The translations under genes were made by a program, and so were the position numbers. DNA of 19,856 nt. It comes from Candidatus Hodarchaeota archaeon. Its GTDB lineage: Archaea; Asgardarchaeota; Heimdallarchaeia; Hodarchaeales; Hodarchaeaceae. The stretch is from assembly GCA_029856365.1 (NCBI GenBank), contig JAHQWW010000070.1:1-19856 (forward strand), written 5' to 3'. Under the pieces are notes generated by a model. The model made no database searches. It worked only from the letters and a program-made list of their open reading frames with translations, and was not told the origin of the DNA. Below, piece after piece: positions 2,986 through 19,528 of the stretch. The number at the start of each line of letters is the position of its first letter. Positions within the stretch are counted from its first letter, which is position 1.

Positions 2986-3127
2986 AGCAATAAAACCTTC
3001 CCTTCAATATTCACATAGGAACCTTTGGTGATAATTCCATAATTTCTAATTTATCAGCTGAAAACCAAATACTTCAACCTTAATATAACTAAATCTCTGG
3101 AATATAAAGATTAATAACTCCTCTACC

Positions 3128-3153
3128 ATGGCGTGCCCCTGACGAGCTATCAG
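3128..3153 (+). repeat. GC-rich dispersed repeat, copy R1 (short internal fragment)
   Basis: atggcgtgcccctgacgagctatcag matches 3381-3406, 5702-5727 and 7018-7043. Confidence 0.8.
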
Positions 3154-3308
3154 AGACGGGGAAGTGGAGTCAGGTCACTCAAATAACCGACACCCACGCC
3201 ATTACTAACGATTTTACTGACGGGATTGTCCCTGGTTTCTCCCTCGTCATTCTCTTCCTTAGTTTCCTGATCACTATCATACAAAGAAGAAGAAAAAGGC
3301 CGATTTGA
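3153..3308 (+). pseudogene. orphan 3' gene fragment encoding a PGF-CTERM-like anchor
   Basis: Translates ETGKWSQVTQITDTHAITNDFTDGIVPGFSLVILFLSFLITIIQRRRKRPI*; no in-frame ATG back to TAA at 3105; 16 mismatches in 156 nt versus 7765-7920. Confidence 0.8.
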
Positions 3309-3320
3309 TCCTAGGCAATT

Positions 3321-3436
3321 GTTAGAGCGAAACGAGTTTGGTTATCGAGAGCAGCACTTAGGTTGATGTTAGATCCTCCGATAGGGTGCCCCTGGCGAGC
3401 CACCAGAAGCCAGCTTGCTTTCTGGAGCGATACTCT
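3321..3436 (+). repeat. GC-rich dispersed repeat, copy R2
   Basis: gttagagcgaaacgag...gagagcagcacttaggttgatgttaga...atagggtgcccctggcgagccaccagaagccagcttgctttctggagcga; blocks shared with R3, R4 and R5. Confidence 0.85.
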
Positions 3437-3803
3437 CAACTTTCATTTGCATAAAAAAATTGTGTGAATTTCACCATAAATTGATGTCATCTGACCTAAG
3501 ATAATACAGGATTTCCTTATATCGATATTATACTCACAACCAAAGTCACAATCGTTGTGGAAAAAGTTTGACAAAATAAACTGTCTCTTAATGTGATTAA
3601 AAGACATGATTTCCAAAAGAATAGGTAAAAAGAAAGAGTACTCCTTGAAGCTGAATTTTAAAAAGGACTGGAGAAAAAAATAAACATTTTAGACCTTGGA
3701 AGCATTTTGAAAACAATGTTTATTAAGCTAAATAGTCTAAACATTCTTATTTCTTTTTTCATCAAGTTTTCTGCTTGTCTCCATTGAAGGGGAAGAATTT
3801 TCT

Positions 3804-4751
3804 TTGTGTTATCGGATCTGTATCGTGAAAAACCTCAGTAAGTCAATTGCTGGCCAGCTGATCATCAATAATATATCCTTTATAATTGTGAAAGGAAAAA
3901 TTACTGCTATAATTGGTCCTAATGGCGCAGGTAAGACAACTCTTATGAAATTAATTATGGGGACAATCAATCCAGATTCAGGAAGCATTTTGGTATTAAA
4001 TGATGTGATTGAAAAATCAAGTATCCGTGAACAGGTTGGGTATATTCCTGAACATTTAGAATTTCCCCCAAGATCGACACCTAAGCATTTTCTTCGTCAT
4101 CTCTGTATATTGAATTCTTTCACGTTTCAACAGGCCCAGAATCATATTTATCAGATTGCTAAGAACCTTGAATTTGGTTCACTTCTAAACAAGGGATTTT
4201 CTACTCTCAGTGCAGGGATGCGGCAAAAAATTCGTTTGGCTGTGGGATTTATGCATCAAGATCTCCAATTTTTATTGGTAGATGAGCCAACAACGAACCT
4301 TGATATTCTTGCAAGAGAGATTTTCTTAAACTTTCTTCAACAAAATGTTCGTGAGAATGGTTTAACTGTCTTTTATAGCAGTCATGTGTTTCCAGAAGTT
4401 AAACGGATAGCAGATTATTTGTTTATTTTGCATGAAGGTTCAGTGGTTGGACAATATGATTTTTGTGAGTCAATACTTAAACACAAAACTAGGAATTATC
4501 GGCTTCGTGTTGACAATATCCATTTGGCTGTTAGAGTCCTAGAGGCTAACGGTTTTTCTGTCTCTCTGATTCACAACGACTCTCTCCTGCTTAAGTTACA
4601 ATCCCAACAGAAATCTAACGATTCTATTGATTTGCTTCGTAAGCATGATATCCAAATCCATTCTTTCACTGAAGATCCCCATGTGGAAGCCTTTAGTCAA
4701 TTACTCAAGATACAACAAACGACATCAGAAAAACTAATTCTGGAGAATTAA
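3804..4751 (+). CDS. ABC transporter ATP-binding protein (ABC-2/CcmA-like exporter)
   Basis: Walker A GPNGAGKTT, signature LSAGMRQK, Walker B LLVDEP, H-loop SSH. Confidence 0.92.
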   Translation: MCYRICIVKNLSKSIAGQLIINNISFIIVKGKITAIIGPNGAGKTTLMKLIMGTINPDSGSILVLNDVIEKSSIREQVGYIPEHLEFPPRSTPKHFLRHLCILNSFTFQQAQNHIYQIAKNLEFGSLLNKGFSTLSAGMRQKIRLAVGFMHQDLQFLLVDEPTTNLDILAREIFLNFLQQNVRENGLTVFYSSHVFPEVKRIADYLFILHEGSVVGQYDFCESILKHKTRNYRLRVDNIHLAVRVLEANGFSVSLIHNDSLLLKLQSQQKSNDSIDLLRKHDIQIHSFTEDPHVEAFSQLLKIQQTTSEKLILEN

Positions 4752-4753
4752 TT

Positions 4754-5596
4754 GTGACAAACACTTGGGATTTGATCAAAATCGAATTATATCATATTCG
4801 TGCCCGAATCTTTGCCTTCTGGGGCATTTATCTCGTCCTCGGGTCTCTAATTAGTCTAGTTTGGTTCAACAGCTTACCTGGCCAGGAAAGTACTATCAGA
4901 TCTTTTCTTCAATTTAATCTGACATCAAGTGCACTCGATTGCTTTCTCCAAACTCCCCCTTATCTGATTCTGTCCACATTTTGTACCATTTTAATTGGTC
5001 CCTCTATAATCCTTCTTGTTATAGATATTATTCCTACCGAAATTGCAACCAGTCAACTTCTGGTGATGAAAACTTCTGGAACAGAACTACAACGTATCTA
5101 TAACATCCGCATTCTCCTTATTACATTCGGTTTTCTCTTTCCTCATTTATGTATATGGGCATTTATTCATATTTTGACTGTGGTACATCTTGTCAATGGA
5201 TCTGTTATTTTTTATGATGCGTTATTTCTATCTTTCTTGCAGTATCTATTTTTTGGTTTTATATTTCTCGTATTCCTCGTTTTTTGTCTTTTATTAGCCT
5301 TCCTTCTTTCAACAACCTTAGAGAATCAAGTTACCTCCTCTTTTATAGCAATTTCTGCTTTTTTAATCCCAGAAATCGTACAATCATTCTTATATTACCA
5401 AGAAATTGATTTTACTATGTCCATCTCCGCGATATTTAATAATTTATATTATTCTATTCCTTCCCCAGATGGAAAAGTTAAGCTTCTTTCCGCATCCAAT
5501 TCTTATGTCTTTATAGGCCTAATAGGACTTCTTACTATCGTACTTGGGCTGATTTTAGCATTTAATTGGATGATTCAGAAGAAAGAAGTTTATTGA
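4754..5596 (+). CDS. ABC-2 type transporter permease
   Basis: About 6 TM helices; starts 2 nt after the ATPase stop; LIKIEL N-terminus and KKEVY C-terminus typical of ABC-2 permeases. Confidence 0.8.
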   Translation: MTNTWDLIKIELYHIRARIFAFWGIYLVLGSLISLVWFNSLPGQESTIRSFLQFNLTSSALDCFLQTPPYLILSTFCTILIGPSIILLVIDIIPTEIATSQLLVMKTSGTELQRIYNIRILLITFGFLFPHLCIWAFIHILTVVHLVNGSVIFYDALFLSFLQYLFFGFIFLVFLVFCLLLAFLLSTTLENQVTSSFIAISAFLIPEIVQSFLYYQEIDFTMSISAIFNNLYYSIPSPDGKVKLLSASNSYVFIGLIGLLTIVLGLILAFNWMIQKKEVY

Positions 5597-5610
5597 AAGC
5601 AGGCTATCGG

Positions 5611-5787
5611 TGAAACGAGCATCCTCAGTGAATGTAAGCTGAAGTAATGGTCTCTTCGGAGATCGTGGAGAGCAGCGCTTAGGTTGATGTTAGAAACTCG
5701 GATGGGGTGACCCTGACGAGCTAACAAAAGCCAGATTACTCTCTGGAGCGACGCCCTTCTATTTTCTTAGAATTAGAAGTCAAATAC
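5611..5787 (+). repeat. GC-rich dispersed repeat, copy R3 (longest; contains a cUUCGg hairpin)
   Basis: gaaacgag...gagagcagcgcttaggttgatgttaga...atggggtgaccctgacgagc...ctctggagcgacgcccttct...ttcttagaattagaagtcaaatac; hairpin at 5647-5666. Confidence 0.85.
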
Positions 5788-5924
5788 AAGTTTTCAATAT
5801 GTAATTCACCTAAATAGGATCTCTTTTCTATTACTTTTAGATGAATATGTATTTATTATAGGGTTAGAAATGAGATGACAATTCTATCAAGATGGATTAT
5901 TCGATTGCAAATTAATATATTCAA

Positions 5925-5942
5925 ACTAAAAACTTTTATATA
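5925..5942 (+). promoter_or_regulatory. archaeal BRE + TATA box
   Basis: actaaaaact followed by TTTATATA (5935-5942), 40 nt upstream of ATG 5975. Confidence 0.5.
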
Positions 5943-5974
5943 TTGGAGTAATTCTTTAATAAATCAGAGTAGAC

Positions 5975-6442
5975 ATGTTTCTTGACATGAATAACGAAAT
6001 GAGTATTGATAAAGTTTTTGGCACTCTCTCTGCCCAAAGAATCTTCTTTACTTTAGCTGTATGGGAAAAGCTAGCTGTATCTGATATTATTACTAAAACG
6101 AAGTTAAGTGAGAGTCAAATCCATCAAACCTTGAAGAAATTATCCAATGTTCAAATGGTGGAAAAGGTCTCACGAGGAGTTTATGCTCTAACCAAGACTA
6201 CTACTACCGAACATTTAAAGAAATTCTATTCGCAGCTATTAATTGAACACGTAGGGGAGGAATTGTATAGGTTATCTAAGAGTATCGATACTCAACCGAT
6301 TGAAGCTGTTTCTGTTCAGTTAAATGCCTTACTTCTTCAATGGAAACCATTAATTGACCAACATTATTCTTTTAGAGTATCCTCATTGGTTGAAGCTATC
6401 ATTGATAAATCGGTGTATGAGCAGAATGTCATTAACGAGTAA
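5975..6442 (+). CDS. winged-helix transcription regulator (ArsR/TrmB-like fold)
   Basis: LAVSDIITKTKLSESQIHQTLKKLSNVQMVEKVSRGVYAL is HTH + wing. Confidence 0.75.
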   Translation: MFLDMNNEMSIDKVFGTLSAQRIFFTLAVWEKLAVSDIITKTKLSESQIHQTLKKLSNVQMVEKVSRGVYALTKTTTTEHLKKFYSQLLIEHVGEELYRLSKSIDTQPIEAVSVQLNALLLQWKPLIDQHYSFRVSSLVEAIIDKSVYEQNVINE

Positions 6443-6905
6443 TCATTTTTTGAACCTCGTTGCCGAAGCGCGAAAATTAATTTTACGTGAATTTAATGTA
6501 CATACGAGTGCTAAGGTTGAATTATGCACAGAAATTGAACTCGCTGAAATAATACTTGATGATGCTCAGAGACGAAATCTGTCTAAACAAAAAATCCAGC
6601 ACATTATGCAGTTACTTCCTTTTTTATATGGAAAATATTTCCTCCATTCACACACCGCCTACGTTATTCTTGGAAGAGGAGACAACTTAGCAATAATTAT
6701 CCATGAATTATTGCATTCTATCCAATTATGTGCACCTAATAGAGAAGATATTGTGGATTATATCTCCTATAAATTAACAAATGAGACAAAATTTATTGAT
6801 CCAGCATTAAAACGAGAATGGGAGGAACTTGAAAGAATCTACACATGGGAAAAAATCAAACATCGTCTTTTGATTGCAGGTAATTGCGAAGACTTTGACT
6901 GGTAG
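6417..6905 (+). CDS. small HEXXH zincin-like metallopeptidase (start probably ATG 6417 or 6426, not 6354)
   Basis: IIIHELLHSIQ motif followed by RE; overlaps the end of the wHTH gene, suggesting translational coupling. Confidence 0.65.
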   Translation: MSRMSLTSNHFLNLVAEARKLILREFNVHTSAKVELCTEIELAEIILDDAQRRNLSKQKIQHIMQLLPFLYGKYFLHSHTAYVILGRGDNLAIIIHELLHSIQLCAPNREDIVDYISYKLTNETKFIDPALKREWEELERIYTWEKIKHRLLIAGNCEDFDW

Positions 6906-6919
6906 ACCGTACCCAAACG

Positions 6920-6968
6920 GAAAAAACTGTCTGTTTCAGTTAATTTGTTCTGGAAAGACTGTTTTTTC
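6920..6968 (+). terminator. long imperfect inverted repeat after the peptidase gene
   Basis: Left arm gaaaaaactgtctgtttcag; reverse complement of right arm gaaaaaacagtctttccag; ends in a T-run. Confidence 0.5.
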
Positions 6969-7017
6969 ACTTGTAAGTATCAAAACTGCTTTGTTAAAAA
7001 TCTATCAAAATGGTCCA

Positions 7018-7103
7018 ATGGGGTGCCCCTGACGAGCCACCAGGAGCTGGGTTTCTCTCTGGAGCGACGCCCTTCTTCTTTCTTAGAATTAGAAGTCAAA
7101 TAC
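7018..7103 (+). repeat. GC-rich dispersed repeat, copy R4 (3' half)
   Basis: atggggtgcccctgacgagccaccagg...ctctctggagcgacgcccttct...ttcttagaattagaagtcaaatac, colinear with 5702-5787. Confidence 0.85.
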
Positions 7104-7250
7104 TAATTTGTATTTTGTAATCCATGTAAAAATCAAAAAAAAAGAGAAATGAAAAAAATAGAGTTCAATTGTGAACAAGTAATACCCAAAAAGAGGCCAA
7201 ACTAGGATCTCAAGCAAAAGTTATTAATTAGTAAAAACTGAGAATCTCTG

Positions 7251-7920
7251 ATGGGGAAAGTGACTCCTAACAAAAGACCCTTGGTAAAGACTACAGAAAG
7301 CCTGATCATTATCCTGCTTCTCTTAATCCTTTCTGTTCTCAGGTGTCCTCCCATTACAAAATGAAAACACTCAGTCTAGCTTGATCAGATCTGTATCGGC
7401 TTCCAGGGATTATTCTTCCTACACTCCAAGAGCCTTCCGCTCAGATTCAGGCCAACCCCATCTCCTCTTTCTTCATAATACTCAGCAGTATGATTTTGGT
7501 GACGCTAACTTTTATCATTCTTATGAATTGGAAGATCGTAGCTGGTCAGTACCGTTTAAGCTGGAGGGTTTAGCCTTCTCAGATATTAATTTTTTGGTTA
7601 ATCTTATGGTTATTAAAAGTGAATCCTGTGAAGATGACTTCTGTGTCTATTATAATAACGAGGGAGAACTATTCAAAAAAGCCTATGATGGCCAATAACA
7701 TCAATGGTCGGATTCTGAAAAACTGTTTTTCAGACACGAGATCTTTACCGTCTTGTATCACACTGAGACGGGGAAGTGGAGTCAGGTCACTCAAATCACC
7801 GATACCTGCGCCATTACTGATGATTATATTGACGGGATTGTCCCTGGTTTTTCCCTCGTCATTCTCTGCCTTAGTTTCTTGATCGCTATCATACTCAGAA
7901 GAAGAAAAAGGCCCGTTTGA
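7251..7920 (+). pseudogene. disrupted secreted/cell-surface protein with PGF-CTERM-like C-terminal anchor
   Basis: ATG 7251 gives a signal-like MGKVTPNKRPLVKTTESLIIILLLLI; frameshift near 7327-7350 into the frame of ORF 7381; in-frame TAA at 7696-7698; frame continues to ...DGIVPGFSLVILCLSFLIAIILRRRKRPV* (7920). Confidence 0.8.
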
Positions 7921-7932
7921 TCCCAAGAAATC

Positions 7933-7979
7933 GTTAGAGCAAAAAGAGCTAGCTTAACGAGAGCAGCGCTTAGGTTGAT
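7933..7979 (+). repeat. GC-rich dispersed repeat, copy R5 (5' part)
   Basis: gttagagcaaaaagagctagcttaacgagagcagcgcttaggttgat, colinear with 3321-3367. Confidence 0.8.
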
Positions 7980-8043
7980 CCTAAGATTATAATAATCTTG
8001 GGAAGTCACAAAATAAGTGTCATATAGAGAGAGATGACTGAAA

Positions 8044-8340
8044 ATGAACCTGGAGAAAATCTCCACTTGTGGAGAAATATTATTCTCTGATGTAGTATAC
8101 TTAACAACTTGCCGGCTAACTAGTGTAAATAGGTACAGAGGAGACTCTATGTTTGGAATAGGAGCAGTTCTCATTCCAGTCCCAATCCTTAACTTCTGGT
8201 ACGATTATGGAAATGATGACTATGGATTTGATGGTAAATTTGCCATTCCCTATCCTAATTTACTGGCAGCCCCACTAATTATAGAACTGCATTATGCAAT
8301 TGGTGCATTTTCTACATCTTGGCTTACAATCCTAGCTTAA
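8044..8340 (+). CDS. hypothetical protein or gene remnant
   Basis: 98-aa ATG ORF with no recognisable motif. Confidence 0.3.
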   Translation: MNLEKISTCGEILFSDVVYLTTCRLTSVNRYRGDSMFGIGAVLIPVPILNFWYDYGNDDYGFDGKFAIPYPNLLAAPLIIELHYAIGAFSTSWLTILA

Positions 8341-10325: not shown

Positions 10326-11936
10326 TTAATTCCTTTCATTCTTCCTACATAGTAAAATGAATACAGTTAAGGACACTAGAAGAATAAGCGAAGTTAAACC
10401 TGGGGACACTTGAGGTATTGATATTGTAGTGGTTGTTGTACTTGTTGTTTTAGTGTATTCGGTTGTACTCGAAGATTTAGTAGTAGTTGGAGGTTCTGTG
10501 ATGGTGGTTGGGGATTCAGTAGTAGTAGTGGTTGAGGGTTCCGTAGAGGTGGTAGTTGAGGGTTCCGTAGTAGTAGTAGTAGTAGTAGTAGTGGTTGAGG
10601 GTTCTGTAGAGGTGGTAGTTGGGGGCTCAGTAGTGGTAGTTATATCCGATACTTGAGGATCAGTCCCATTTAGATATTCATCATAATTTGAAACACCATC
10701 ATTATCTGGATCCTCATTTGCATCATTTATCTTATGATTCAATCCATTCAGAATTTCCCAAATATCAGGTAGATTATCGGAATCCATGTCCAACTGGTTT
10801 ACTCTTGGTTTCATATCTACATTATTACTACTCCCTAAAATGTAAAAAGGATCATCAACATAACCATCAGAATTCATATCAGCTGTACTGGAATGAGTAC
10901 CCCAATAATTTTTTGAAAATATATTTGATGTACCGTTATCCAACGCATCAATTGTATTCCCAAAATAATCATTCATTGTTATATTCATGTTTTCAGCATC
11001 AATGCTTAGACGCGTTCCATACTGATTATTAATGAAATAATTAAATGAGAAATTCGCCAATCTCTTCTTTCGATTGTCAAAAGCCTCTACTTCTAGGCCA
11101 TATTCATTGTTCAAAAGGATATTTGACTTATAGATATTATTCTCTGCCCAGTTTCTAAGGTAAATCCCATAGGTTTTATCAGATACGATATTGTCGGTAA
11201 AGTTATTATTATTCGACAGATTAGGATTAAGTCCTCTTGTACCAAACGATGGGGAGGATGTTTCTAATCTGTTTCCTGTTATGATATTATTGTTAGAATA
11301 AAGTAGGTACAGACTGTAATAGTTTGAGGTAACATTATTGAAATCAACTCGATTGAAATGAGAGGTGTGTAAGTATAGTCCATTGTTGCTATTAATTAAC
11401 GTGTTATTCACAATGCTATTGTAATCTGAATATTGTAACTCAATTCCCCAATACGAGGTGTTTATGTAGTTATTGCTTACAATCATGTATTGGGATTCGA
11501 TTATTTTAATACCTTCCTCTAAAGTATTATTCTCAATTACAGAGGTTGTAACATTTGTTAATTCAATTCCCATGGGTGTTGAAGGAACTCCATTAAGGAT
11601 GTTATTAAAAATCTTAAAGCTCAATGAAACGTTATGGATTTCTATTAAAATGGATGATCCTCTAATATTCAAACCTTCGATTATATAGGGTTTGGATATT
11701 GATCCATCTCCCGATAAACCTTCATTGTTTGCGTAATCGATTAATTCATCATCCCCAACGATGTATATTGGAGCATGATCTATGAAACTGATGCTATTGA
11801 GATTAAATGATTTAACCTCATTATTCTCCTCTACGTCTGATTGAATCATATTTTGTATTCCATTAATTGAAATAATCAATAACATTATTAAAACAATAAG
11901 TAATTTATTTCTTGAATTTCTTCTTTCACTAACCAT
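10326..11936 (-). CDS. cell-surface NosD/CASH-type parallel beta-helix protein with Ca-binding DxDxD repeats, Thr-rich linker and C-terminal anchor
   Basis: Likely start ATG 11936 with GGAG upstream; signal peptide; HAPIYI..D and GDGS..KPYIIE cap; repeated GI.L..S..N.I..N; DMDSDNLPDIWE and DPDNDGVSNYDEY; poly-Thr; SPGLT-TM-RKNERN. Confidence 0.85.
   Translation of the reverse strand: MVSERRNSRNKLLIVLIMLLIISINGIQNMIQSDVEENNEVKSFNLNSISFIDHAPIYIVGDDELIDYANNEGLSGDGSISKPYIIEGLNIRGSSILIEIHNVSLSFKIFNNILNGVPSTPMGIELTNVTTSVIENNTLEEGIKIIESQYMIVSNNYINTSYWGIELQYSDYNSIVNNTLINSNNGLYLHTSHFNRVDFNNVTSNYYSLYLLYSNNNIITGNRLETSSPSFGTRGLNPNLSNNNNFTDNIVSDKTYGIYLRNWAENNIYKSNILLNNEYGLEVEAFDNRKKRLANFSFNYFINNQYGTRLSIDAENMNITMNDYFGNTIDALDNGTSNIFSKNYWGTHSSTADMNSDGYVDDPFYILGSSNNVDMKPRVNQLDMDSDNLPDIWEILNGLNHKINDANEDPDNDGVSNYDEYLNGTDPQVSDITTTTEPPTTTSTEPSTTTTTTTTTTEPSTTTSTEPSTTTTTESPTTITEPPTTTKSSSTTEYTKTTSTTTTTISIPQVSPGLTSLILLVSLTVFILLCRKNERN
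10494..10640 (-). repeat. intragenic tandem repeats encoding the Thr/Glu/Pro linker
   Basis: (GTA)8 at 10567-10590 and a ~40-bp direct repeat (about 10518-10558 and 10581-10621) encoding TTTSTEPSTTTTT. Confidence 0.85.
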
Positions 11937-12412
11937 AGTTACATCTCCTTTACTTCCACAAAGGTGAATGTCAGTCAATAATGTCAGACAAACTTCGTGT
12001 TATAAAAATGAAGTCATATTACTCGAAATTGTTACTTTCTTTCACCAGATTCATCATTCATTCCCTCTTTCGGGGTTCTTTTCTGAATGAATTCTGTTCA
12101 AACCACTCAGTATCAACTTATGGTCGAAGTCATCATCCCGCCATTCCTTTTAGGGGAGAAATGTTAATCTGAAGTAATGTTTGAAAACTGATAATCTAGG
12201 AGATAAAATATCCTTCATTTTTATTTGATTTTAGAATGATTTATGTATTAATCCCTCTATTTCTTCATAAGAAGTGTTTATTTTCTTTATGGGTCTTTTC
12301 ATAACAGTTATGTTGTAATCAAAGGTAATAGATCATCACAGAACTATTCAGTAAAAGTTGGATGGGAAATCTTAAAGATGGGGACTATTAATTTGAGGAA
12401 TAGGATATCAAA

Positions 12413-12868
12413 ATGCGCCAAGCACCTCTTCTCCATGTTTTAGGCTGTTTTATTGGCTTTATATTCATGATTCTCGCAACTGTTCTTGGAGATGTTCAAC
12501 TATCACTATTAGGATCTAATTTATTCATTTTGACATGGCTATTGTTTAGTTTACGCGAACTTCTAATATTTTTAGTGATTTTATGGCAACAAACAAAAGA
12601 TAAAGGTGTTTTCCTCATCGTTGGCTTAAGAGCTGGTTTCCTGGTTGACTTCGTGTTTTTCTATACGATTATGACAGGGATCACCTTTGATGTCCCGCCT
12701 TTTTCTGTCTTGGAACATAATCCCACTTGGTATATGATTGGTATAACGCTCCCAGTGATTCTATTACTCGGGATAGGAATGGTTTGGCTGATTGCAGAAC
12801 AAAAATTATCTCCAACTCTACCCATTGGTAAAGGTTGGGTTTCTCAGTGGCCATTTAATAAAAATTGA
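12413..12868 (+). CDS. hypothetical membrane protein (about 4 TM)
   Basis: 151-aa hydrophobic ORF, ATG start with GAGGA upstream. Confidence 0.7.
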   Translation: MRQAPLLHVLGCFIGFIFMILATVLGDVQLSLLGSNLFILTWLLFSLRELLIFLVILWQQTKDKGVFLIVGLRAGFLVDFVFFYTIMTGITFDVPPFSVLEHNPTWYMIGITLPVILLLGIGMVWLIAEQKLSPTLPIGKGWVSQWPFNKN

Positions 12869-12879
12869 TTACCTAGAGG

Positions 12880-13086
12880 AAAAACTCAAATGATAGAATG
12901 AGAATCAAACCTAATCTCGTTAGAAGAGACTACTACAACAAAGATACTAAATCAATTATTGATACAATCACATTGAAACGACTAAAAGCAAAAGGAACTG
13001 CTTTGATAAAGATGGTTATTGTTTCACGACCTCTTTCTATTCACATTTTTTATAATTCGGTAATTGTTGCATTCTTTCTATTTTAA
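12880..13086 (+). pseudogene. truncated paralogue of the 5' part of gene 2497-2985
   Basis: 12904-13082 versus 2536-2714: about 25 mismatches in 179 nt, no indels; stops within the first TM helix. Confidence 0.8.
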
Positions 13087-13122
13087 TTTATTGAAAAAGC
13101 ATATACTAAATCCAGTAGTAGT

Positions 13123-15069
13123 TTAATATGATAATATATGTTCTTCAGACATTTGAAGAGCCGTAAGTGCTTTCTCTGATATGTAGACTCTTGTAATATC
13201 ATGGTGTGTTATCCACCCAATTAACTCAGGGAACTCGTTTTTCTGACTTAGAGGTTTGATTACCACAGGAAGACGTGAAATATCTTTACTTTCCATAATA
13301 TGAACAGCATGCAGTAAAGTTGCATCCTTGTGGATGCAAATAAGAGGTCTCTTCTTCGTTATTAATACATCAAATACATTCCAATCTTTTGGAGAGCTAT
13401 GCAATGCATCTTGAACATCTCCTAGTGTTATTACACCAAGTAGCTTATCTTGTTCAACTATAGGAAATCCTTCGTGACGGGTAGTTCGGACAAGCTCCAT
13501 AACTGTTTCTAATCTTGTCTTGGTATCTACCACAATCAATTTTTCCCTTGGGGTCATTGCTTCTTCAACAGTGATTGTCTCAAGGACATCAGCAAGAGGT
13601 TCCTGTAAGACAACACCTCTCCGAATGAGTTTCAAAGTATAAATATTGTCTTTTTCAAGAACAACGGAAATAAGCCAGCTTATTGAAACGACCACCATCA
13701 GAGGAATAGTTAAAAAATAATCCCCCGTCATTTCTGCAGTCATAATAATGGCTGTTAGCGGTGCACGACCTGTTCCTGCAAAAAACGCAGCCATTCCCAA
13801 TAAAGCGAGTAGAGAAATTGGAACATTAGCTATAATAATGATATCATCGACTATTATTCCAAATATTGCTCCTAACATAACACCCAAAAATAAAGTTGGA
13901 GCAAATACTCCTCCTGAACCACCAGTACCAATTGTAAAAACAGTGCTAAGTGCTTTTAGGATAAATAATAAAATTAATACACTGAGAACTAGAAAAACAG
14001 ATCCTTGTATTAATGAACCTTGAAAAATGGCATCCATGGGAAGATAAGTACGCCCCATAATTGTAAATGATTCCCATTGATCACCTACAAAGAAGAATGT
14101 TAATACTAGCATCGACCCCACTAAAGCTCCCCCAATAGCTGGTTGCACGATATCAGGAATGTTTAACTTTTCAAATATGTATTCTAATATGTCCTCTGCT
14201 TTATAAAAGAATTTAATCCACAATGCAGAGCCAATTCCACAAATTAAGCCCAGAACTACAAAAAGAGGGATTAAATACGGTTCATGATATTCTAAAGCAG
14301 GAAATCCAGAGAAAGCCGGATTTGTTCCTAGTAATAATTGCCCTGTGACCACCCCAACAACAGCTGCTACAACTATTGGAATCAACAACCCCGTTACGCT
14401 CCCTCCTCCCATTAATATTTCTAAGGCAAATAACGATCCCCCGATAGGCGCATTAAACGTAGATGCTATTCCTGCTGCGACTCCAGAAACAACTAATGTC
14501 CGCAGTTCTTTGGGAGAAAGGTCTAATTTTTGTCCCACTAATGAAGCAAACCCAGCTCCTATCTGAGCGATCGGTCCTTCTCGTCCTGCTGATCCACCGG
14601 AGCCAATTGTTGTTGCAGAAGCAATGATCTTAATGAATGGAATCCTTAAATTCATTTTTCCATTTTTTAAAGCCACAGACTCTAGAACTTCTGGAACACC
14701 ATGCCCTTTCGTTTCTTTTGATACTCGAGAGGTAAGATAACCGACGATTAATCCACCAATAATTGGTGCGAGAAGGAACGGTATCCAGGTTATGTAAGAT
14801 AGTGCTAGAGTGTTCAATACACGCATTGGTAGAGAATAAAAAACCTCATAGATAAGAGTAATCGCTAATCGAAAAACCCATGAGCCCAATCCTCCTATTA
14901 TACCTACTCCGATTGCAAGAATATTTAATTTAATTAAAGGAGGCAGATTTTTACTTTTTTTTCGTAAGTATGCTTTAATTCTACCAAATGCTTTATCTTC
15001 TTGGAATAAATCCTTTATGACTCCTTTTTTCGTTGTAAAATGCCTCCAAAAGAATATACTCGTTTCCAC
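13123..15069 (-). CDS. ClC family chloride channel/transporter with C-terminal CBS pair
   Basis: GHGVPE, GSAGREGP, FNAPIGG, GGVFAP, APLTAIIMTAEMTG, IY motifs; two CBS domains (HEGFPIV..LLGVIT, ISRLPVV..LIGWIT); start position uncertain. Confidence 0.93.
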   Translation of the reverse strand: METSIFFWRHFTTKKGVIKDLFQEDKAFGRIKAYLRKKSKNLPPLIKLNILAIGVGIIGGLGSWVFRLAITLIYEVFYSLPMRVLNTLALSYITWIPFLLAPIIGGLIVGYLTSRVSKETKGHGVPEVLESVALKNGKMNLRIPFIKIIASATTIGSGGSAGREGPIAQIGAGFASLVGQKLDLSPKELRTLVVSGVAAGIASTFNAPIGGSLFALEILMGGGSVTGLLIPIVVAAVVGVVTGQLLLGTNPAFSGFPALEYHEPYLIPLFVVLGLICGIGSALWIKFFYKAEDILEYIFEKLNIPDIVQPAIGGALVGSMLVLTFFFVGDQWESFTIMGRTYLPMDAIFQGSLIQGSVFLVLSVLILLFILKALSTVFTIGTGGSGGVFAPTLFLGVMLGAIFGIIVDDIIIIANVPISLLALLGMAAFFAGTGRAPLTAIIMTAEMTGDYFLTIPLMVVVSISWLISVVLEKDNIYTLKLIRRGVVLQEPLADVLETITVEEAMTPREKLIVVDTKTRLETVMELVRTTRHEGFPIVEQDKLLGVITLGDVQDALHSSPKDWNVFDVLITKKRPLICIHKDATLLHAVHIMESKDISRLPVVIKPLSQKNEFPELIGWITHHDITRVYISEKALTALQMSEEHILSY

Positions 15070-15533
15070 TTGTAACCAGGCGAAATTCTACTAAAATCCT
15101 CCTACTATTATTGAGGCTTAAAAAATCTTATCTCCCTATTATTTTCCTAAATTTATGAGTACTAAATTTGTATATTCTGCCTAGTACATAAAAGAATAAC
15201 AGGTTTATCTATCCAATAATACTTTTTACCATTTTTTCTCCTAGATATTCTATATAGGCGTGCCTTATAACCTTTGAGGGACAATAACTCAAAATAATCA
15301 AGATTAATTTTCAGAAAATGAAATCACTATTAGACATGTCTATATGATTCTAATCGATATATTAGTGTTATCGCAAATTTAGATATATGATTAAATTTAT
15401 ATAGGCCTGATTATATCACTTTCTTTACATGTTACCAGATTTTTTCATATAGATTGATGAAAAATTTAGCTTATTTCAGTTTAGACTTGCCTATATGGTA
15501 TTGAAGAATACTAGGTGAGATTGGAATATAAGG

Positions 15534-16241
15534 ATGCGCTTAAGGTTGCCAAAAGGTAACGCAGAAGTTACAGATCAAATGTTACACTCAAAATTAGAGT
15601 CATTTGAACGTCCTGTAACAATCAATGATCTTACCTCACGGTTAAATTGGAGTCGAGGGAAAGTTGACGGTGCCATCAATCGTTTGCAAGATAAGAACAA
15701 AGTAGCTGTGGTTAAAGTTTCATTACCGAAAGGTCAACGTCGGCGTTACATTGGTTTACCACATAAGGCTTATTGGCAACGATTTTATCAGAATATAATT
15801 GTTCAAGAAAAAAACATCCTTCTTAATGATCCTCTTGGAGTCCTAAAAGACTCTATACCTCAAACAAATCCTCTAAATACTTCTCTTGTTGAAGAGCTTC
15901 AAAAAACAGTTAACAATCTATATCGTACATTAGAAGATAGAGAATTGCAAATCAAATTTCTCAAACAGGAAGCTTTAGAAAATAGCGGACAAATAGATCC
16001 CATGATTATCAAGGTGATTAAGGAGCAACTAGATCTGATTACTACTGCAGCTAATCAACGCAACATTACACCTGCTGAACTGTTGAAATCTGGTATCCCT
16101 CAAATTGCTGATCCAAATTTTGATTTAATTACTAAGATTGTTACTGTTGTAATAAATGAAAGTCGATCTGAGGTCGATTCTATCGAGCGGACGGTGGCAC
16201 GTACTTTTCTTCGCCGTGCCCAAACTCTAGAACGTAGATGA
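15534..16241 (+). CDS. uncharacterised DNA-binding protein: N-terminal wHTH, coiled coil, possible C-terminal ribbon-helix-helix
   Basis: VTINDLTSRLNWSRGKVDGAINRL + wing; heptad segment VEELQKTVNNLYRTLEDRELQIKFLKQE; IIKVIKEQLDLITTAANQRNITPAELLKSGI. Confidence 0.7.
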   Translation: MRLRLPKGNAEVTDQMLHSKLESFERPVTINDLTSRLNWSRGKVDGAINRLQDKNKVAVVKVSLPKGQRRRYIGLPHKAYWQRFYQNIIVQEKNILLNDPLGVLKDSIPQTNPLNTSLVEELQKTVNNLYRTLEDRELQIKFLKQEALENSGQIDPMIIKVIKEQLDLITTAANQRNITPAELLKSGIPQIADPNFDLITKIVTVVINESRSEVDSIERTVARTFLRRAQTLERR

Positions 16242-16251
16242 GGTAAGTATA

Positions 16252-17292
16252 ATGTCTGATAGATTAGAACGAGAGACAATTAAGAAGCTTACTTCGGTTT
16301 CAAGCGTACTGAAGAATCCTTATAAAAATCTAGAAGATATCCTTATACAATTGGGAGAAATAGATGAAATTTCACGATATAAAAGGGAAGGGGTATATGA
16401 GAAAGAATTAGAATTCCACACGGTTGGCGAAAAAGCGAGAAAAGCGCTCATTGAGGTTGAAGAAGAGGTTAACAATCCAAGTGAAAGCTTAACCAAGGTA
16501 TTAAGAGATCTTGGTGAGATGTTCAAAGTTTGTGGTATTTGTGGCAAGGGAATCATGGATAATGAGCTTGTTTCAGGCGTTTGTTTTGATTGTTATCGTA
16601 AAGGGGAAGTGATACACGCGCAAAATATAAAAATAGGGGAATTGGAAGCTCAAGTAAGAAATATGGAGTCCAAATTAGGAAATTCACCCCCACGAGATTA
16701 TATGAGTGACATTATTGATGAAATTCTTGTAACTATCCGAAAGGATATTGAACACGATCTTAAATCAATAAAAAGTGGCTTATCTTCTACTCAGAAAATT
16801 CAATCTCCTCCGTCACCTCCTCCTCCTCCAAAAACAAACGCTTGGGAAAATGGAATTATTAATTCTCATGATCTCGATTTTTCTAATATGAGTCTGGCAG
16901 AATTAAAAAAGTATACACCAAAATTTCTCTCTGAATTACCTCTTTCCCAGCGGAATCAGTATAATACTCGCTTAAAAGAATTGCAATTATTAGAAAAGAT
17001 GTCACAGAAGCAGAAAAAGGAATACTTTCGAAAAAAGAGAAAGGAACAAGAGGAAGCTACGAATTTAGATGAGTTAAGGGATTCATTGAAAAATTTAAGT
17101 GAATCAGATAATCCTTTGTTTTTGAAAATGAAACAGCAAGCTGAAAAATCAGTTCTAGCAGGGCAAGGCACCTTAGGTAATTTTGGGCTGAAAGAAATAT
17201 TCGTTAATTGTCATAAATGCAATACAACAAATAAGATAATAGAAGGTAAAAAAGCTCGATGTAAAAAATGTCGTGCTACTTTAAGAACGTGA
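16252..17292 (+). CDS. uncharacterised protein with two C4 zinc-binding motifs, coiled coils and a polyproline tract
   Basis: CGIC-x12-CFDC; IKIGELEAQVRNMESKL; SPPSPPPPPK; C-terminal CHKC-x13-CKKC; SD-like GAGGT at the upstream stop codon. Confidence 0.8.
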   Translation: MSDRLERETIKKLTSVSSVLKNPYKNLEDILIQLGEIDEISRYKREGVYEKELEFHTVGEKARKALIEVEEEVNNPSESLTKVLRDLGEMFKVCGICGKGIMDNELVSGVCFDCYRKGEVIHAQNIKIGELEAQVRNMESKLGNSPPRDYMSDIIDEILVTIRKDIEHDLKSIKSGLSSTQKIQSPPSPPPPPKTNAWENGIINSHDLDFSNMSLAELKKYTPKFLSELPLSQRNQYNTRLKELQLLEKMSQKQKKEYFRKKRKEQEEATNLDELRDSLKNLSESDNPLFLKMKQQAEKSVLAGQGTLGNFGLKEIFVNCHKCNTTNKIIEGKKARCKKCRATLRT

Positions 17293-17334
17293 AATTCAGT
17301 ATTCAAATATTTCACTAATTAAGAAGTACATATA

Positions 17335-17883
17335 TTAGAAAGCACTTTTTTCTGAACGTAAGAAAATTCCGATATCTACCAAATTCTGCAACCATGCATT
17401 TTTCTCTTTTGAAAAAATCTTTGCATATCCAAGTGGAATGTTGTTATCCGAAAATACCATGATAGTAGTGTTCTCTTCAAGGTGTTCTATCTGTTTCTGT
17501 AATGAAATAGTATTAATAACAATATCCTTGCCATATATAAACTTCTGTGTGTTTTTTGTGTCCAAAGAAATTCTTTTTCGTGTTAATGGGGATAATAATG
17601 TTAAAGATTCGATTCCAATAAGGAATTTCTCATGAATAAAAAAACCTAATTTAATTCGTGCATGTTCAATACTAAAACTCTTTTCAGGAAGCTTTGAGGA
17701 AAGACGTTCAAATAAAGAAATGTCTTCTTTTAAAACCAAATAAACATCATTTCTGTCCCCTTTTATTTTGATAAGCATTTTTCTTTTAAGAATAATGGTC
17801 ATAGCATCAGAGTCAAGTATTTGGTTGATTGTTGTTTCAACCTGGTTTGTTTCATCTTTTGTTAATTGTTTGAAGAGCTTCAA
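17335..17883 (-). CDS. Nip7-like PUA-domain ribosome biogenesis/RNA-binding protein
   Basis: KFIYGKDI, NIPLGYA and C-terminal LVDIGIFLRSE match the Nip7/PUA pattern; adjacent to a Nop2/RsmB gene. Confidence 0.75.
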   Translation of the reverse strand: MKLFKQLTKDETNQVETTINQILDSDAMTIILKRKMLIKIKGDRNDVYLVLKEDISLFERLSSKLPEKSFSIEHARIKLGFFIHEKFLIGIESLTLLSPLTRKRISLDTKNTQKFIYGKDIVINTISLQKQIEHLEENTTIMVFSDNNIPLGYAKIFSKEKNAWLQNLVDIGIFLRSEKSAF

Positions 17884-17887
17884 TTAA

Positions 17888-18814
17888 TCACCTTTTTTTT
17901 AAAATAGCGGTGAAAAAACCGTCATAACCGAGTTTCGGGAATATACGTTTAGTTTTCACTAATTGAGTATTGAGGGGGGTTTTCCAGTTTGTATTACTAC
18001 CAGAGGAACCAATATCAAAAGGTATAGAAAGGAGAACAACTTCATTTTTATGAAGTTCAAGGAAGTTCTCAATCTGTACTTCCCCCTCTTCAGGTTCTAG
18101 GCTACATGTAGAGTAAACAAGAGTTCCATTTGGTTTTAATTGCTCCCAAGCTTTTTCTATTAGAGCTTCTTGTTGTTTTGCAAGGCGAAAAATATCATTA
18201 AGTATTCTTGGCCTCAATCGTTTATTTTTTGTAAGTTTAAGTCCTGTTCCTGAGCAAGGTGCATCGAGAAGGATATGATCTACTTGAATGTCTAGCTTAG
18301 GGAACAAGACAGAATCAAGATTCAGAATTATAGTGTTCAAAACTCCCATTCTTATTAGATTTGCTTTTAATGCTGGTATCCGCTTGCTAGATTTTTCGAT
18401 AGCAATGATAGTTCCTCGGTTATTCATTTGTTGAGCTAAAAGACTAGTTTTTATTCCTGGAGAAGCAGTTAAATCAGCAACGATGCTGTTGGATGAGGGT
18501 TGTAGACTTAGTGGTGGGATTAAAGAGGAGAGTGCTTGAATGGAAAACATCCCAGATAAGTATTCAGGTGTTGAAACAATATTAAACGGTTCGAATGTCA
18601 CAATTAATCCGTTAAATTCATTTATCTTTTTAAATTTGAAACCATTACTTTCTAATTGAAGTACTAGATTGGGAATATTGGTTTTAAGTAGATTTGGTAC
18701 TATTATTCGTGGTTCATTTTGTCTAAGATTGTGAATAATAGATTCGGTCTGAGATTTCCCATAAAATGACTTCCATCTTTCAATAAATTCCATTGGAATA
18801 TTATTTTGACTCAT
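17888..18814 (-). CDS. RsmB/Nop2/NSUN family RNA (cytosine-C5) methyltransferase
   Basis: DLTASPGIKT (motif I), ILLDAPCSGTG (motif IV), LVYSTCSLEPEEGE (motif VI), DGFF. Confidence 0.93.
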   Translation of the reverse strand: MSQNNIPMEFIERWKSFYGKSQTESIIHNLRQNEPRIIVPNLLKTNIPNLVLQLESNGFKFKKINEFNGLIVTFEPFNIVSTPEYLSGMFSIQALSSLIPPLSLQPSSNSIVADLTASPGIKTSLLAQQMNNRGTIIAIEKSSKRIPALKANLIRMGVLNTIILNLDSVLFPKLDIQVDHILLDAPCSGTGLKLTKNKRLRPRILNDIFRLAKQQEALIEKAWEQLKPNGTLVYSTCSLEPEEGEVQIENFLELHKNEVVLLSIPFDIGSSGSNTNWKTPLNTQLVKTKRIFPKLGYDGFFTAILKKR

Positions 18815-18817
18815 GAC

Positions 18818-19399
18818 TCAGATTCCTTTCGTATTAAGTTGCTTTTCTATCAGTAATTCTAGGTACGATTTTCTTTCATCTTTTCCAGACCAAGTGGGGA
18901 TAATTTCTTGTGCAAGGTGGATGATTTTTTCTTTACTTTTGGTAATTTCCTCTGAGTGCTCTGAAGTTGTTGTAGTCTCAATCTCAAGAAATAGTCCTAA
19001 GTTTTCCACTATATCAAATGAAATTACAAAACTATTCTGTCTCCAATTTATCCTTTTCTTTTTGATTTTTGTAAATGTCTGAAATCCTAAGTTTTGTAGG
19101 ATTCTTTTTGCATTAATGATATTTGAAGCTTCGATGGTAATCTCTTCTCGGAGTTTCATATTTTCACCTTGTTTTGGCCCTTTATAGGTAATTTCGCTTT
19201 TTTCTTTTCCTGATTCAGTCAAAATATGTCGTAATCGAAGTGCTTCATCAGATTTCCGAAAATTATGGATTGGACTCGTAAAATATGTATCAATTTGAGT
19301 GATTTCCTCAGAAGGAGTACCTAACTTCTTTGACAGGAGCGTTAATACTTTTTCAATGGAATTATCTGCCTTAAGAGGAATTTTCATTTCTATTTCCAT
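18818..19399 (-). CDS. cyaB: CYTH domain protein (class IV adenylate cyclase/triphosphate tunnel enzyme, CyaB-like)
   Basis: Likely start MEIEMK (ExExK), QIDTYF, ALRLR, ITYKGPK, REE, LGLFLEIE, KSYLELL. Confidence 0.88.
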   Translation of the reverse strand: MEIEMKIPLKADNSIEKVLTLLSKKLGTPSEEITQIDTYFTSPIHNFRKSDEALRLRHILTESGKEKSEITYKGPKQGENMKLREEITIEASNIINAKRILQNLGFQTFTKIKKKRINWRQNSFVISFDIVENLGLFLEIETTTTSEHSEEITKSKEKIIHLAQEIIPTWSGKDERKSYLELLIEKQLNTKGI

Positions 19400-19528
19400 G
19401 AGACTACATCCATAAAGGATCTTAAGTACAAGGCATTTATTCAACGAAAAACTAGCAAGTATTTTTATACGACTTTGCTTTAGAAATCCCTAGATAAGTC
19501 GAGGAATGTATTTTCATAAGGATGCTTT

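Follow-up and report, generated by a model that had tools for sequence, protein, structure and literature searches.

What are five GC-rich repeats doing behind the genes of an archaeal contig whose overall GC content is 34.5%? The window discussed here is the entire contig C82 (JAHQWW010000070.1; 19,856 nt) of a Candidatus Hodarchaeota archaeon, part of a metagenome-assembled genome (MAG; G000 among the genomes compared) of 4.24 Mb in 204 contigs, 83.6% complete. Hodarchaeota-type Asgard archaea are regarded as being among the closest known relatives of eukaryotes and, to our knowledge, very little is known about how genes are acquired by the genomes of this group. A preliminary description of the window had placed five same-strand copies, R1 to R5, within positions 3128–7979, assembled them into a consensus of ~150 nt, and suggested a non-autonomous mobile element, a structured RNA in 3' untranslated regions (UTRs), or a cassette boundary comparable in position to an integron attC site. 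All five copies are present on the + strand, with a GC content of 51–63% against 28–41% in their 200-nt flanks, and the consensus is correct: it is the sequence of the 3' half of rnpB. This identity had been missed, while the idea of a cassette boundary holds as regards position. The copies are neither a new RNA nor a mobile element: they derive from rnpB, the gene for archaeal RNase P RNA (RF00373), whose 3' half they represent in 5'-truncated form. In this Hodarchaeota-type Asgard subclade DNA has probably been inserted at the 3' end of rnpB repeatedly.

Identity of the repeats

How can the source of such fragments be recognised? A DNA search of 60 related genomes finds the sequence in 14 of 21 members of the genus, with no credible match in other genera. 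The conserved block of these relatives reaches beyond the 5' limit that it has in the window, and the homologous loci are full-length RNase P RNA genes (RNaseP_arch, RF00373) of 127–154 bits, the gathering score being 84. R1–R5 are 83–100% identical to a relative's rnpB, and BLAST against the whole genome gave E values from 2e-61 (R3) to 0.03 (R1, 27 nt). The longest copy, R3, is 90% identical over 171 nt to the rnpB of G014, a gene of 149 bits; given to Infernal from its breakpoint, it is recovered as a 5'-truncated RF00373 match (model positions 156–288, 25.8 bits, E 5e-6). Such significant similarity to bona fide genes of relatives marks the copies as rnpB pseudogene fragments. None is a functional RF00373 gene, which would be full-length at 84 bits or more, with a 5' half carrying CR-I (GAGGAAA) and the 5' strand of P4. 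Does the assembly hold such a gene elsewhere? A whole-genome covariance-model search for RNase P RNA in G000 peaks at 10.6 bits, and no sequence anywhere in the assembly matches rnpB positions 1–231. Positions of this kind, here and below, refer to one full-length rnpB reference onto which all copies were mapped. The five copies are as follows.

3128–3154, + strand: R1, rnpB fragment cut at both ends, reference 336–362; 89% identity by BLAST to a relative's rnpB
3321–3436, + strand: R2, heavily decayed rnpB fragment; clear homology at 3344–3430, reference 299–385 (83% identity, E 2e-18); under the detection level of Infernal
5598–5768, + strand: R3, longest rnpB fragment, with T-rich terminator, reference 232–402; found by Infernal (RF00373) and BLAST
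7014–7103, + strand: R4, rnpB part at 7014–7084, reference 332–402 (83% identity), plus a 3' flank common with R3 (repeat D5, with 5702–5814)
7933–7979, + strand: R5, rnpB fragment with its 3' end cut; clear homology at 7959–7979, reference 302–322 (100% over 21 nt); part of direct repeat D2

One further copy lies at C204:127342–127444, bringing the genome to six copies in 4.2 Mb, five of them within one 5-kb stretch. All six derive from one cellular gene, which does not suit the proposed non-autonomous mobile element; nor does the distribution suit a miniature inverted-repeat transposable element, with its inverted repeats, target duplications and dispersed copies. Terminal inverted repeats were not noted in the repeat listing, no dedicated search for inverted repeats or target duplications having been made.

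Decay of the copies

Do the copies have a function of their own? Three of them begin directly behind stop codons, as the preliminary description had observed: the stops at 3306–3308, 5594–5596 and 7918–7920 precede R2, R3 and R5, whose starts are 2–15 nt away (rnpB homology in R3 begins 2 nt past the stop). R2 and R5 lie inside one duplicated block, as had also been recognised (3153–3367 versus 7765–7979, 87% identical). This placement would suit a selected structured RNA in cassette 3' UTRs, be it a ribozyme (hammerhead-like CUGANGA/GAAA), a K-turn or a SECIS-like element, and so would a GGGGUG/CGCCCU pairing visible in the sequence, of which R2 has a compensated variant. Each copy also bears the rnpB terminator and so probably ends the upstream transcript.

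The fate of conserved positions speaks otherwise. The fragments were aligned to 15 intact rnpB genes of the genus, and 66 of 747 cells (9%) are changed at columns that are invariant in all 15, about the same rate as at variable columns; in R1, R2 and R4 the changes at invariant columns reach 33%, 22% and 24%. The universally conserved block ACAGAAGCUGGAUUAC (ACAGAA...GGAUUAC) reads CCAGAAGCCAGCUUGC in R2, CCAGGAGCUGGGUUUC in R4 and ACAAAAGCCAGAUUAC in R3. Because of these changes at invariant rnpB positions, a structured 3'-UTR RNA as the selected function is not supported. The copies are cut arbitrarily at both ends, and Rfam offers RNase P alone: the window has no match at gathering score, the stretch 3000–8100 has none at E up to 10, and the only family recovered is that of the truncated R3. 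We consider a selected structured RNA very unlikely. The copies are decaying relics whose apparent structure is inherited from RNase P RNA; tails of this kind have no RNase P function and at most supply the rnpB terminator to the upstream cassette gene.

Where do the suggestive motifs come from? The capitalised words of the earlier consensus, GAAAC and CTGACGAG, are parts of rnpB. Of the two hammerhead-like words, GAAAC is conserved rnpB sequence of J11/12 type, and CUGACGAG is part of a lineage-specific hairpin of ~25 nt inserted between model positions 257 and 258. A hammerhead or other ribozyme, prompted by these words, was rejected, as no Rfam hammerhead or other ribozyme match was obtained over 3000–8100, at gathering score or at E up to 10. 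A K-turn or SECIS-like 3'-UTR element, suggested by GA..GA and the GGGGUG/CGCCCU pairing by eye, was abandoned given the rnpB identity and the decay. Fragments of rnpB such as these are easily mistaken for novel structured RNAs. The hairpin itself, GAUGGGGUGACCCUGACGAG, is an extra element of the RNase P RNA of this genus, present at window positions 5690–5725 and in all rnpB genes of the genus, and it covaries between subclades (GGGGUGACCC versus UUAGGUGACUUA).

Arrays behind rnpB in related genomes

What do the same fragments look like where the parent gene is at hand? Five relatives (G007, G009, G011, G014 and G017) each have one intact rnpB followed by one to five partial copies on the same strand, 0.8–10 kb apart. 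In six relatives (the five genomes and one metagenome contig) as in the window, the blocks between copies hold unrelated accessory genes, so that the copies delimit cassettes in a hypervariable island, as the comparison with attC in position had anticipated. The 5' ends of the fragments, from genomes and metagenome contigs together, are sharp and scattered (174, 212, 225, 232, 249, 254, 260, 267, 285, ~300, 318, 332, 344, 345, 352 and 357). Their 3' ends fall mostly at 383–404, the gene end plus its T-rich terminator, and the three shortest fragments that reach the 3' end of the gene (357–385, 352–391 and 345–388) all retain its last ~30 nt.

The cargo is ordinary. It includes ABC transporters, a CLC channel and an MFS transporter; a radical-SAM enzyme with a methyltransferase-like partner, NadA, a malate/lactate dehydrogenase, a flavoprotein and a GNAT acetyltransferase; PadR and helix-turn-helix (HTH) regulators; a PIN protein and an AbiE-like pair, which are toxin-antitoxin or defence-like; and beta-helix surface proteins.

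Is this a genomic island? The pattern used to recognise islands at RNA genes (Williams/Islander), a downstream same-strand repeat of the gene's 3' end bounding non-syntenic DNA, is found in all five array-bearing genomes and, for the window, through synteny only. The island spans ~4 kb in G009, ~23 kb in G007 and more than 15.5 kb in the window, and in G010 the site is empty, the 3' end of rnpB lying 45 nt from a PUA-domain gene. G005, G001 and G016 have 2.5–9 kb of other DNA at the site, with no detectable remnants of degraded tails. When rnpB is compared by self-BLAST with its own downstream flank (up to ~16 kb or to the contig end), 20 genomes of other genera and 10 further members of the genus are free of additional copies, save G081. 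In G081, which belongs to another family (locus L087, 2579–2601), a second copy of the final 23 nt of rnpB lies 57 nt past the gene; it may mark a minimal insertion or a duplicated terminator in a distant lineage.

Gene content and layout of the window

Where does the window sit relative to these arrays? Contig C82 starts inside the island and ends in the conserved genes past the array. Its positions 12413–19444 are syntenic with the distal cassettes and the conserved genes past the arrays of G007, G009 and G017, and a DUF3267 gene at 1818–2357 has a 92%-identical homologue inside the G007 array. The other features of the window are the following.

3153–3308, + strand: orphan tail of a surface-protein gene, last ~52 codons with a VPGF-TM-RRRKR ending; copy of 7765–7920 (direct repeat D2, 87% identical); tblastn match to amino acids (aa) 431–459 of a paralogue on C204
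3804–5596, + strand: cassette of an ABC transporter ATPase (3804–4751; PF00005, E 5e-28) and a membrane protein (4754–5596)
5975–6905, + strand: cassette of a winged HTH (wHTH) regulator (5975–6442; weak HTH_9/TrmB/HTH_5 matches) and a 183-aa protein of no known family (6354–6905)
7357–7920, + strand: degraded surface-protein gene with an in-frame TAA at 7696–7698 and ~265 codons missing relative to the C204 paralogue
12413–15069, mixed strands: distal cassettes common with relatives' arrays, a 151-aa protein (+) and a CLC chloride channel (-; PF00654, E 1.5e-87), with 80% and 83–85% aa identity to array genes of G007, G009 and G017
15534–19444: conserved core flank past the island, with 235-aa, 346-aa, UPF0113 PUA-domain, RsmB/F and CYTH genes, syntenic with the region past the arrays in G007, G009 and G017

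The PUA-domain, RsmB/F and CYTH genes also adjoin rnpB in array-free relatives. Between the CLC gene and these core genes no distal tail remnant is present in the window, and the stretch is deleted relative to G007 and G009. The window's ABC genes are just 24–29% identical to the ABC genes of relatives' arrays, so this cassette is found in the window's array only; the wHTH/183-aa cassette has no homologue among the relatives' arrays.

The left part of the array has been rearranged. The block formed by R1, the orphan gene tail and R2 is a copy of R4, the surface-protein gene and R5 with an internal deletion; the 3' end of R1 is fused to the gene tail at the deletion junction, which shares an AGA microhomology. 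The source gene is itself damaged, 7357–7920 matching (tblastn) aa 26–154 and 420–459 of the 484-aa C204 paralogue in one frame. No match to the NCBIfam PGF-CTERM model was obtained with its tail, for which 'PGF-CTERM-like' refers to the VPGF-TM-RRRKR motif only.

Origin of the arrays

How could a gene come to be followed by a row of its own tails? The reading that we favour, at a probability of about 0.8, is that gene cassettes entered at the rnpB tail again and again by single crossovers, leaving the copies as scars, and that duplication and deletion reshuffled these afterwards. Beyond the observed identity of the fragments, the architecture of the arrays, their synteny, their decay and the lack of a linked recombinase, we infer a circular intermediate and a recombination pathway. 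A circle would form when a random site in the rnpB of a donor is joined illegitimately to a site further downstream, giving a circular DNA that bears genes and a stretch of rnpB tail. A single (Campbell-type) crossover between this circle and the chromosomal rnpB would insert it, restoring an intact rnpB and shifting the truncated tail, with all the former downstream DNA, one step outward. Repeated rounds would yield the order rnpB, cassette, tail, cassette, tail and so on up to the core genes, and recombination among the tails would then duplicate, delete and reorder cassettes. The single-crossover pattern is known for elements that target tRNA and tmRNA genes.

Is a dedicated enzyme required? 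Integration may proceed by homologous recombination on the conserved tail without one. Such an enzyme-free model fits because no recombinase is present and the 5' limits of the fragments are scattered rather than fixed, and homology would end at the terminator, as it does, because lineage-specific downstream DNA begins there. Ordinary host homologous recombination, rather than a dedicated recombinase, seems to us the likeliest agent, at about even odds.

The other candidate is a trans-acting site-specific recombinase, encoded elsewhere, that would recognise the last ~30 nt of rnpB (as attB) and the same sequence on circular cassettes, inserting and excising them as in integrons or island accretion. 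That the three shortest fragments reaching the 3' end keep these ~30 nt, a typical size for an att core, speaks for it. So does the modularity of the cassettes, discrete units found at differing array positions. The radical-SAM cassette, for example, is the first block after rnpB in G007 and the fifth in G011; the two are homologous (76–86% identity) from the rnpB end on the left, across the genes, to just past the right-hand tail, and the neighbours differ on both sides. Moreover, G007, G009 and G011 contain, away from the arrays, second PF00589 genes that are not Xer-like. The system would resemble the integrase-less 'cis-mobilizable' islands behind ssrA in Dehalococcoides, where about half of the ssrA islands lack an integration module (PMC3146451). 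Against such a recombinase stand the 5' ends of the repeats, spread over 180 nt, and the outcome of the searches. As the preliminary description had stated, no transposase, integrase or reverse transcriptase (RT) domain occurs in the 34 scanned open reading frames (ORFs) of at least 62 aa in the window (28 scanned with Pfam alone, six with Pfam and NCBIfam), and no recombinase is encoded by any of ~80 reading frames examined in the arrays and flanking DNA. The genome-wide search covered tyrosine recombinases (PF00589), other families being sought by Pfam scans of the array reading frames alone; PF00589 matches lie hundreds of kb from the arrays or on other contigs, none near an array, so by these searches no integrase is encoded inside the elements. 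An integron-style integrase upstream of rnpB was also considered and rejected: the gene there differs among genomes and codes for an M20 peptidase, a histidine kinase or an unknown protein. In G000 the only full PF00589 gene has a score similar to that of the top conserved match in each relative, and there is one weak partial match besides, although this MAG is only 83.6% complete. We regard a trans-acting recombinase as the less likely agent. In a control for classical integrative elements, only 14 tRNAs were detected in G000; the one candidate, a tRNA-Gly on C79, was discarded as a site since it encloses core housekeeping genes and probably represents an unannotated second tRNA.

Could the arrays have arisen without imported DNA? 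Repeated tandem duplications, with one breakpoint in rnpB and the other downstream, followed by divergence and loss, would give a similar layout. Duplications do occur within the window, both in the R4-gene-R5 block relative to R1-(deleted gene)-R2 and in a 218-nt direct repeat (2497–2714 versus 12865–13082), and some cassettes carry ordinary cellular genes (NadA, malate/lactate dehydrogenase, CLC channel). Neighbouring cassettes, however, are mostly unrelated to each other and to the cassettes of sister genomes, the same cassette is found among different neighbours in G007 and G011, and the island ranges from 45 nt to 23 kb among close relatives, all of which make a purely local origin unlikely. 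A third possibility is that RNase P RNA was reverse-transcribed and the products inserted behind genes, with 5' truncation as in the target-primed process. Retro-copies would share a 3' end and vary in their 5' truncation, as the fragments do, yet the fragments include the terminator past the mature 3' end, nearly all of them directly follow the parent gene on a single strand instead of being dispersed, and the scanned reading frames of the window and the arrays include no RT. Of all the origins weighed here this one is the least credible.

Repeated single-crossover insertion has its own difficulties, and several observations weigh against it. No breakpoint falls in the first 173 nt of rnpB, which requires the additional assumption that long repeats are lost quickly. 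Tails as short as 29–44 nt would be poor substrates for homologous recombination and resemble att cores more. Decay along the window does not rise smoothly with distance. Copies away from the site, on C204 in G000 and at a second locus in G015, are left unexplained by insertion at rnpB, and no circular or free cassette was found among viral and metagenome contigs: the former gave no match to the rnpB tail, and a metagenome scan returned five contigs, all chromosomal-looking pieces of arrays or genes without recombinases. Finally, an intact rnpB is found neither on the window contig nor in the rest of the G000 assembly, so that the link between the window's array and rnpB rests on synteny. The intact gene most likely lies in an assembly gap caused by these very repeats. 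Contig C48 ends within the ABCE1-like gene, the upstream neighbour of rnpB in relatives, and a weak sub-threshold match to the RNase P protein family Rpp21 on C79 (26.8 bits, cut-off 29.3) hints that the organism has an RNA-based RNase P. The repeats break assemblies at an essential marker gene, and rnpB is absent from this MAG.

Might the cassettes still be moving? Under an extension of repeated insertion at rnpB, small recombinase-less cassettes with rnpB tails would be excised as circles and re-inserted at rnpB or at any tail, within or between species, by host recombination or by an undiscovered trans-acting recombinase. We put this forward tentatively, as possible and with the odds against it; if true, mobile rnpB-tailed cassettes would be functionally equivalent to an integron in archaea, with an essential ribozyme gene as the platform.

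Comparison with known systems

How do the arrays compare with islands already described? Tandem islands marked by 3' fragments of tRNA or tmRNA genes are a textbook trace of integrative elements, and the rnpB-tail arrays are a variant of this known kind with rnpB as the target.

A close parallel is with the ssrA islands of Dehalococcoides, which are bounded by 20-bp repeats, with a DsiB serine-recombinase module in 16 of 31 (PMC3146451). In both cases several direct repeats of the 3' end of a structural RNA gene, essential and present in a single copy, lie behind that gene on its own strand; every repeat marks the end of a strain-specific block, the region is highly variable between close relatives and many blocks are without integration genes. 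The target here, unlike there, is rnpB and not ssrA or a tRNA gene; the repeats measure 21–211 nt with scattered 5' ends instead of a fixed 20 bp with a mapped insertion point; no recombinase occurs in any block of the genomes examined; and the blocks are mostly smaller (0.8–4 kb). Tycheposon arrays in Prochlorococcus islands contain partial tRNAs, and there too successive integrations at one RNA gene push older elements inward and leave partial gene copies and degenerate remnants (bioRxiv 10.1101/2020.12.28.424599). Tycheposons, however, carry tyrosine recombinases and replication modules and excise as circles detected by PCR, whereas no integrase, integrase fragment or circle was found here.

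What of integrons? As in arrays built by IntI, attI and attC, small cassettes of one to three genes, mostly in the same orientation and each with a boundary repeat, are stacked at a fixed platform. No IntI-type integrase adjoins this platform, though, and what bounds the cassettes is a piece of a cellular RNA gene instead of the imperfect palindrome of an attC; intergenic regions of their own are present in many cassettes, and some genes lie on the opposite strand. A non-tRNA structural RNA gene as target has a precedent in the phage site of Enterococcus faecalis in ffs (4.5S/SRP RNA), where the identity segment is likewise at the gene end, the difference being that one prophage, which brings its own integrase and has a core of 27 nt, is involved there and many integrase-less cassettes here (PMC12540744). 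A 2025 list of RNA-gene attachment sites comprises tRNA/tmRNA, csRNA and ffs and does not include rnpB (PMC12540744). Full-text literature searches found no description of rnpB as an integration target or cassette platform. The unusually small size of the cassettes, their ordinary metabolic, transport, regulatory and toxin-antitoxin cargo and the constant lack of a recombinase raise the testable possibility of recombinase-independent, homology-anchored gene capture.

Further observations

The copy on C204 deserves a description of its own. The segment (G000:C204:125819–128042; L002) contains a full-length surface-protein gene (496 aa), an rnpB tail (reference 300–402) and a 153-aa gene. The adjacency of tail and 153-aa gene is as in the G017 array, yet the segment lies 127 kb into an unrelated contig, and it could be a translocated piece of an array or a mis-join. 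Two of three flanking genes tested have no orthologue in five relatives, and the third matches in G007 only, on a contig other than that of the G007 array.

Two further loci concern rnpB itself. Across subclades of the genus, rnpB has opposite orientations between the same neighbours, the PUA-domain and ABCE1-like genes (L095, G003, 2557–2917 versus L092, G010, 16495–16857; also G002, G013 and G020); between these two genes, the RNA gene alone is inverted. The sole rnpB of G015, a single-contig genome (G015:C1:754884–755269; L024/L054), scores 71 bits, below gathering, and aligns from reference position 63; it may be 5'-altered or interrupted.

Other parts of the island within the window also merit mention. 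At 129–1821 a wHTH gene precedes one for a nucleotidyltransferase that matches AbiEii weakly (E 8.5e-5), and the two form an AbiE-like toxin-antitoxin pair. The 218-nt repeat mentioned above is 83% identical between its copies and duplicates the start of a 162-aa ORF (2497–2985) beside the 151-aa gene, a further segmental duplication in the island. On the - strand, 10326–11978 encodes a NosD/beta-helix surface protein with a Thr/Ser-rich tandem repeat at 10473–10664 (period 21–39 nt), and a related beta-helix gene is present in the G007 array.

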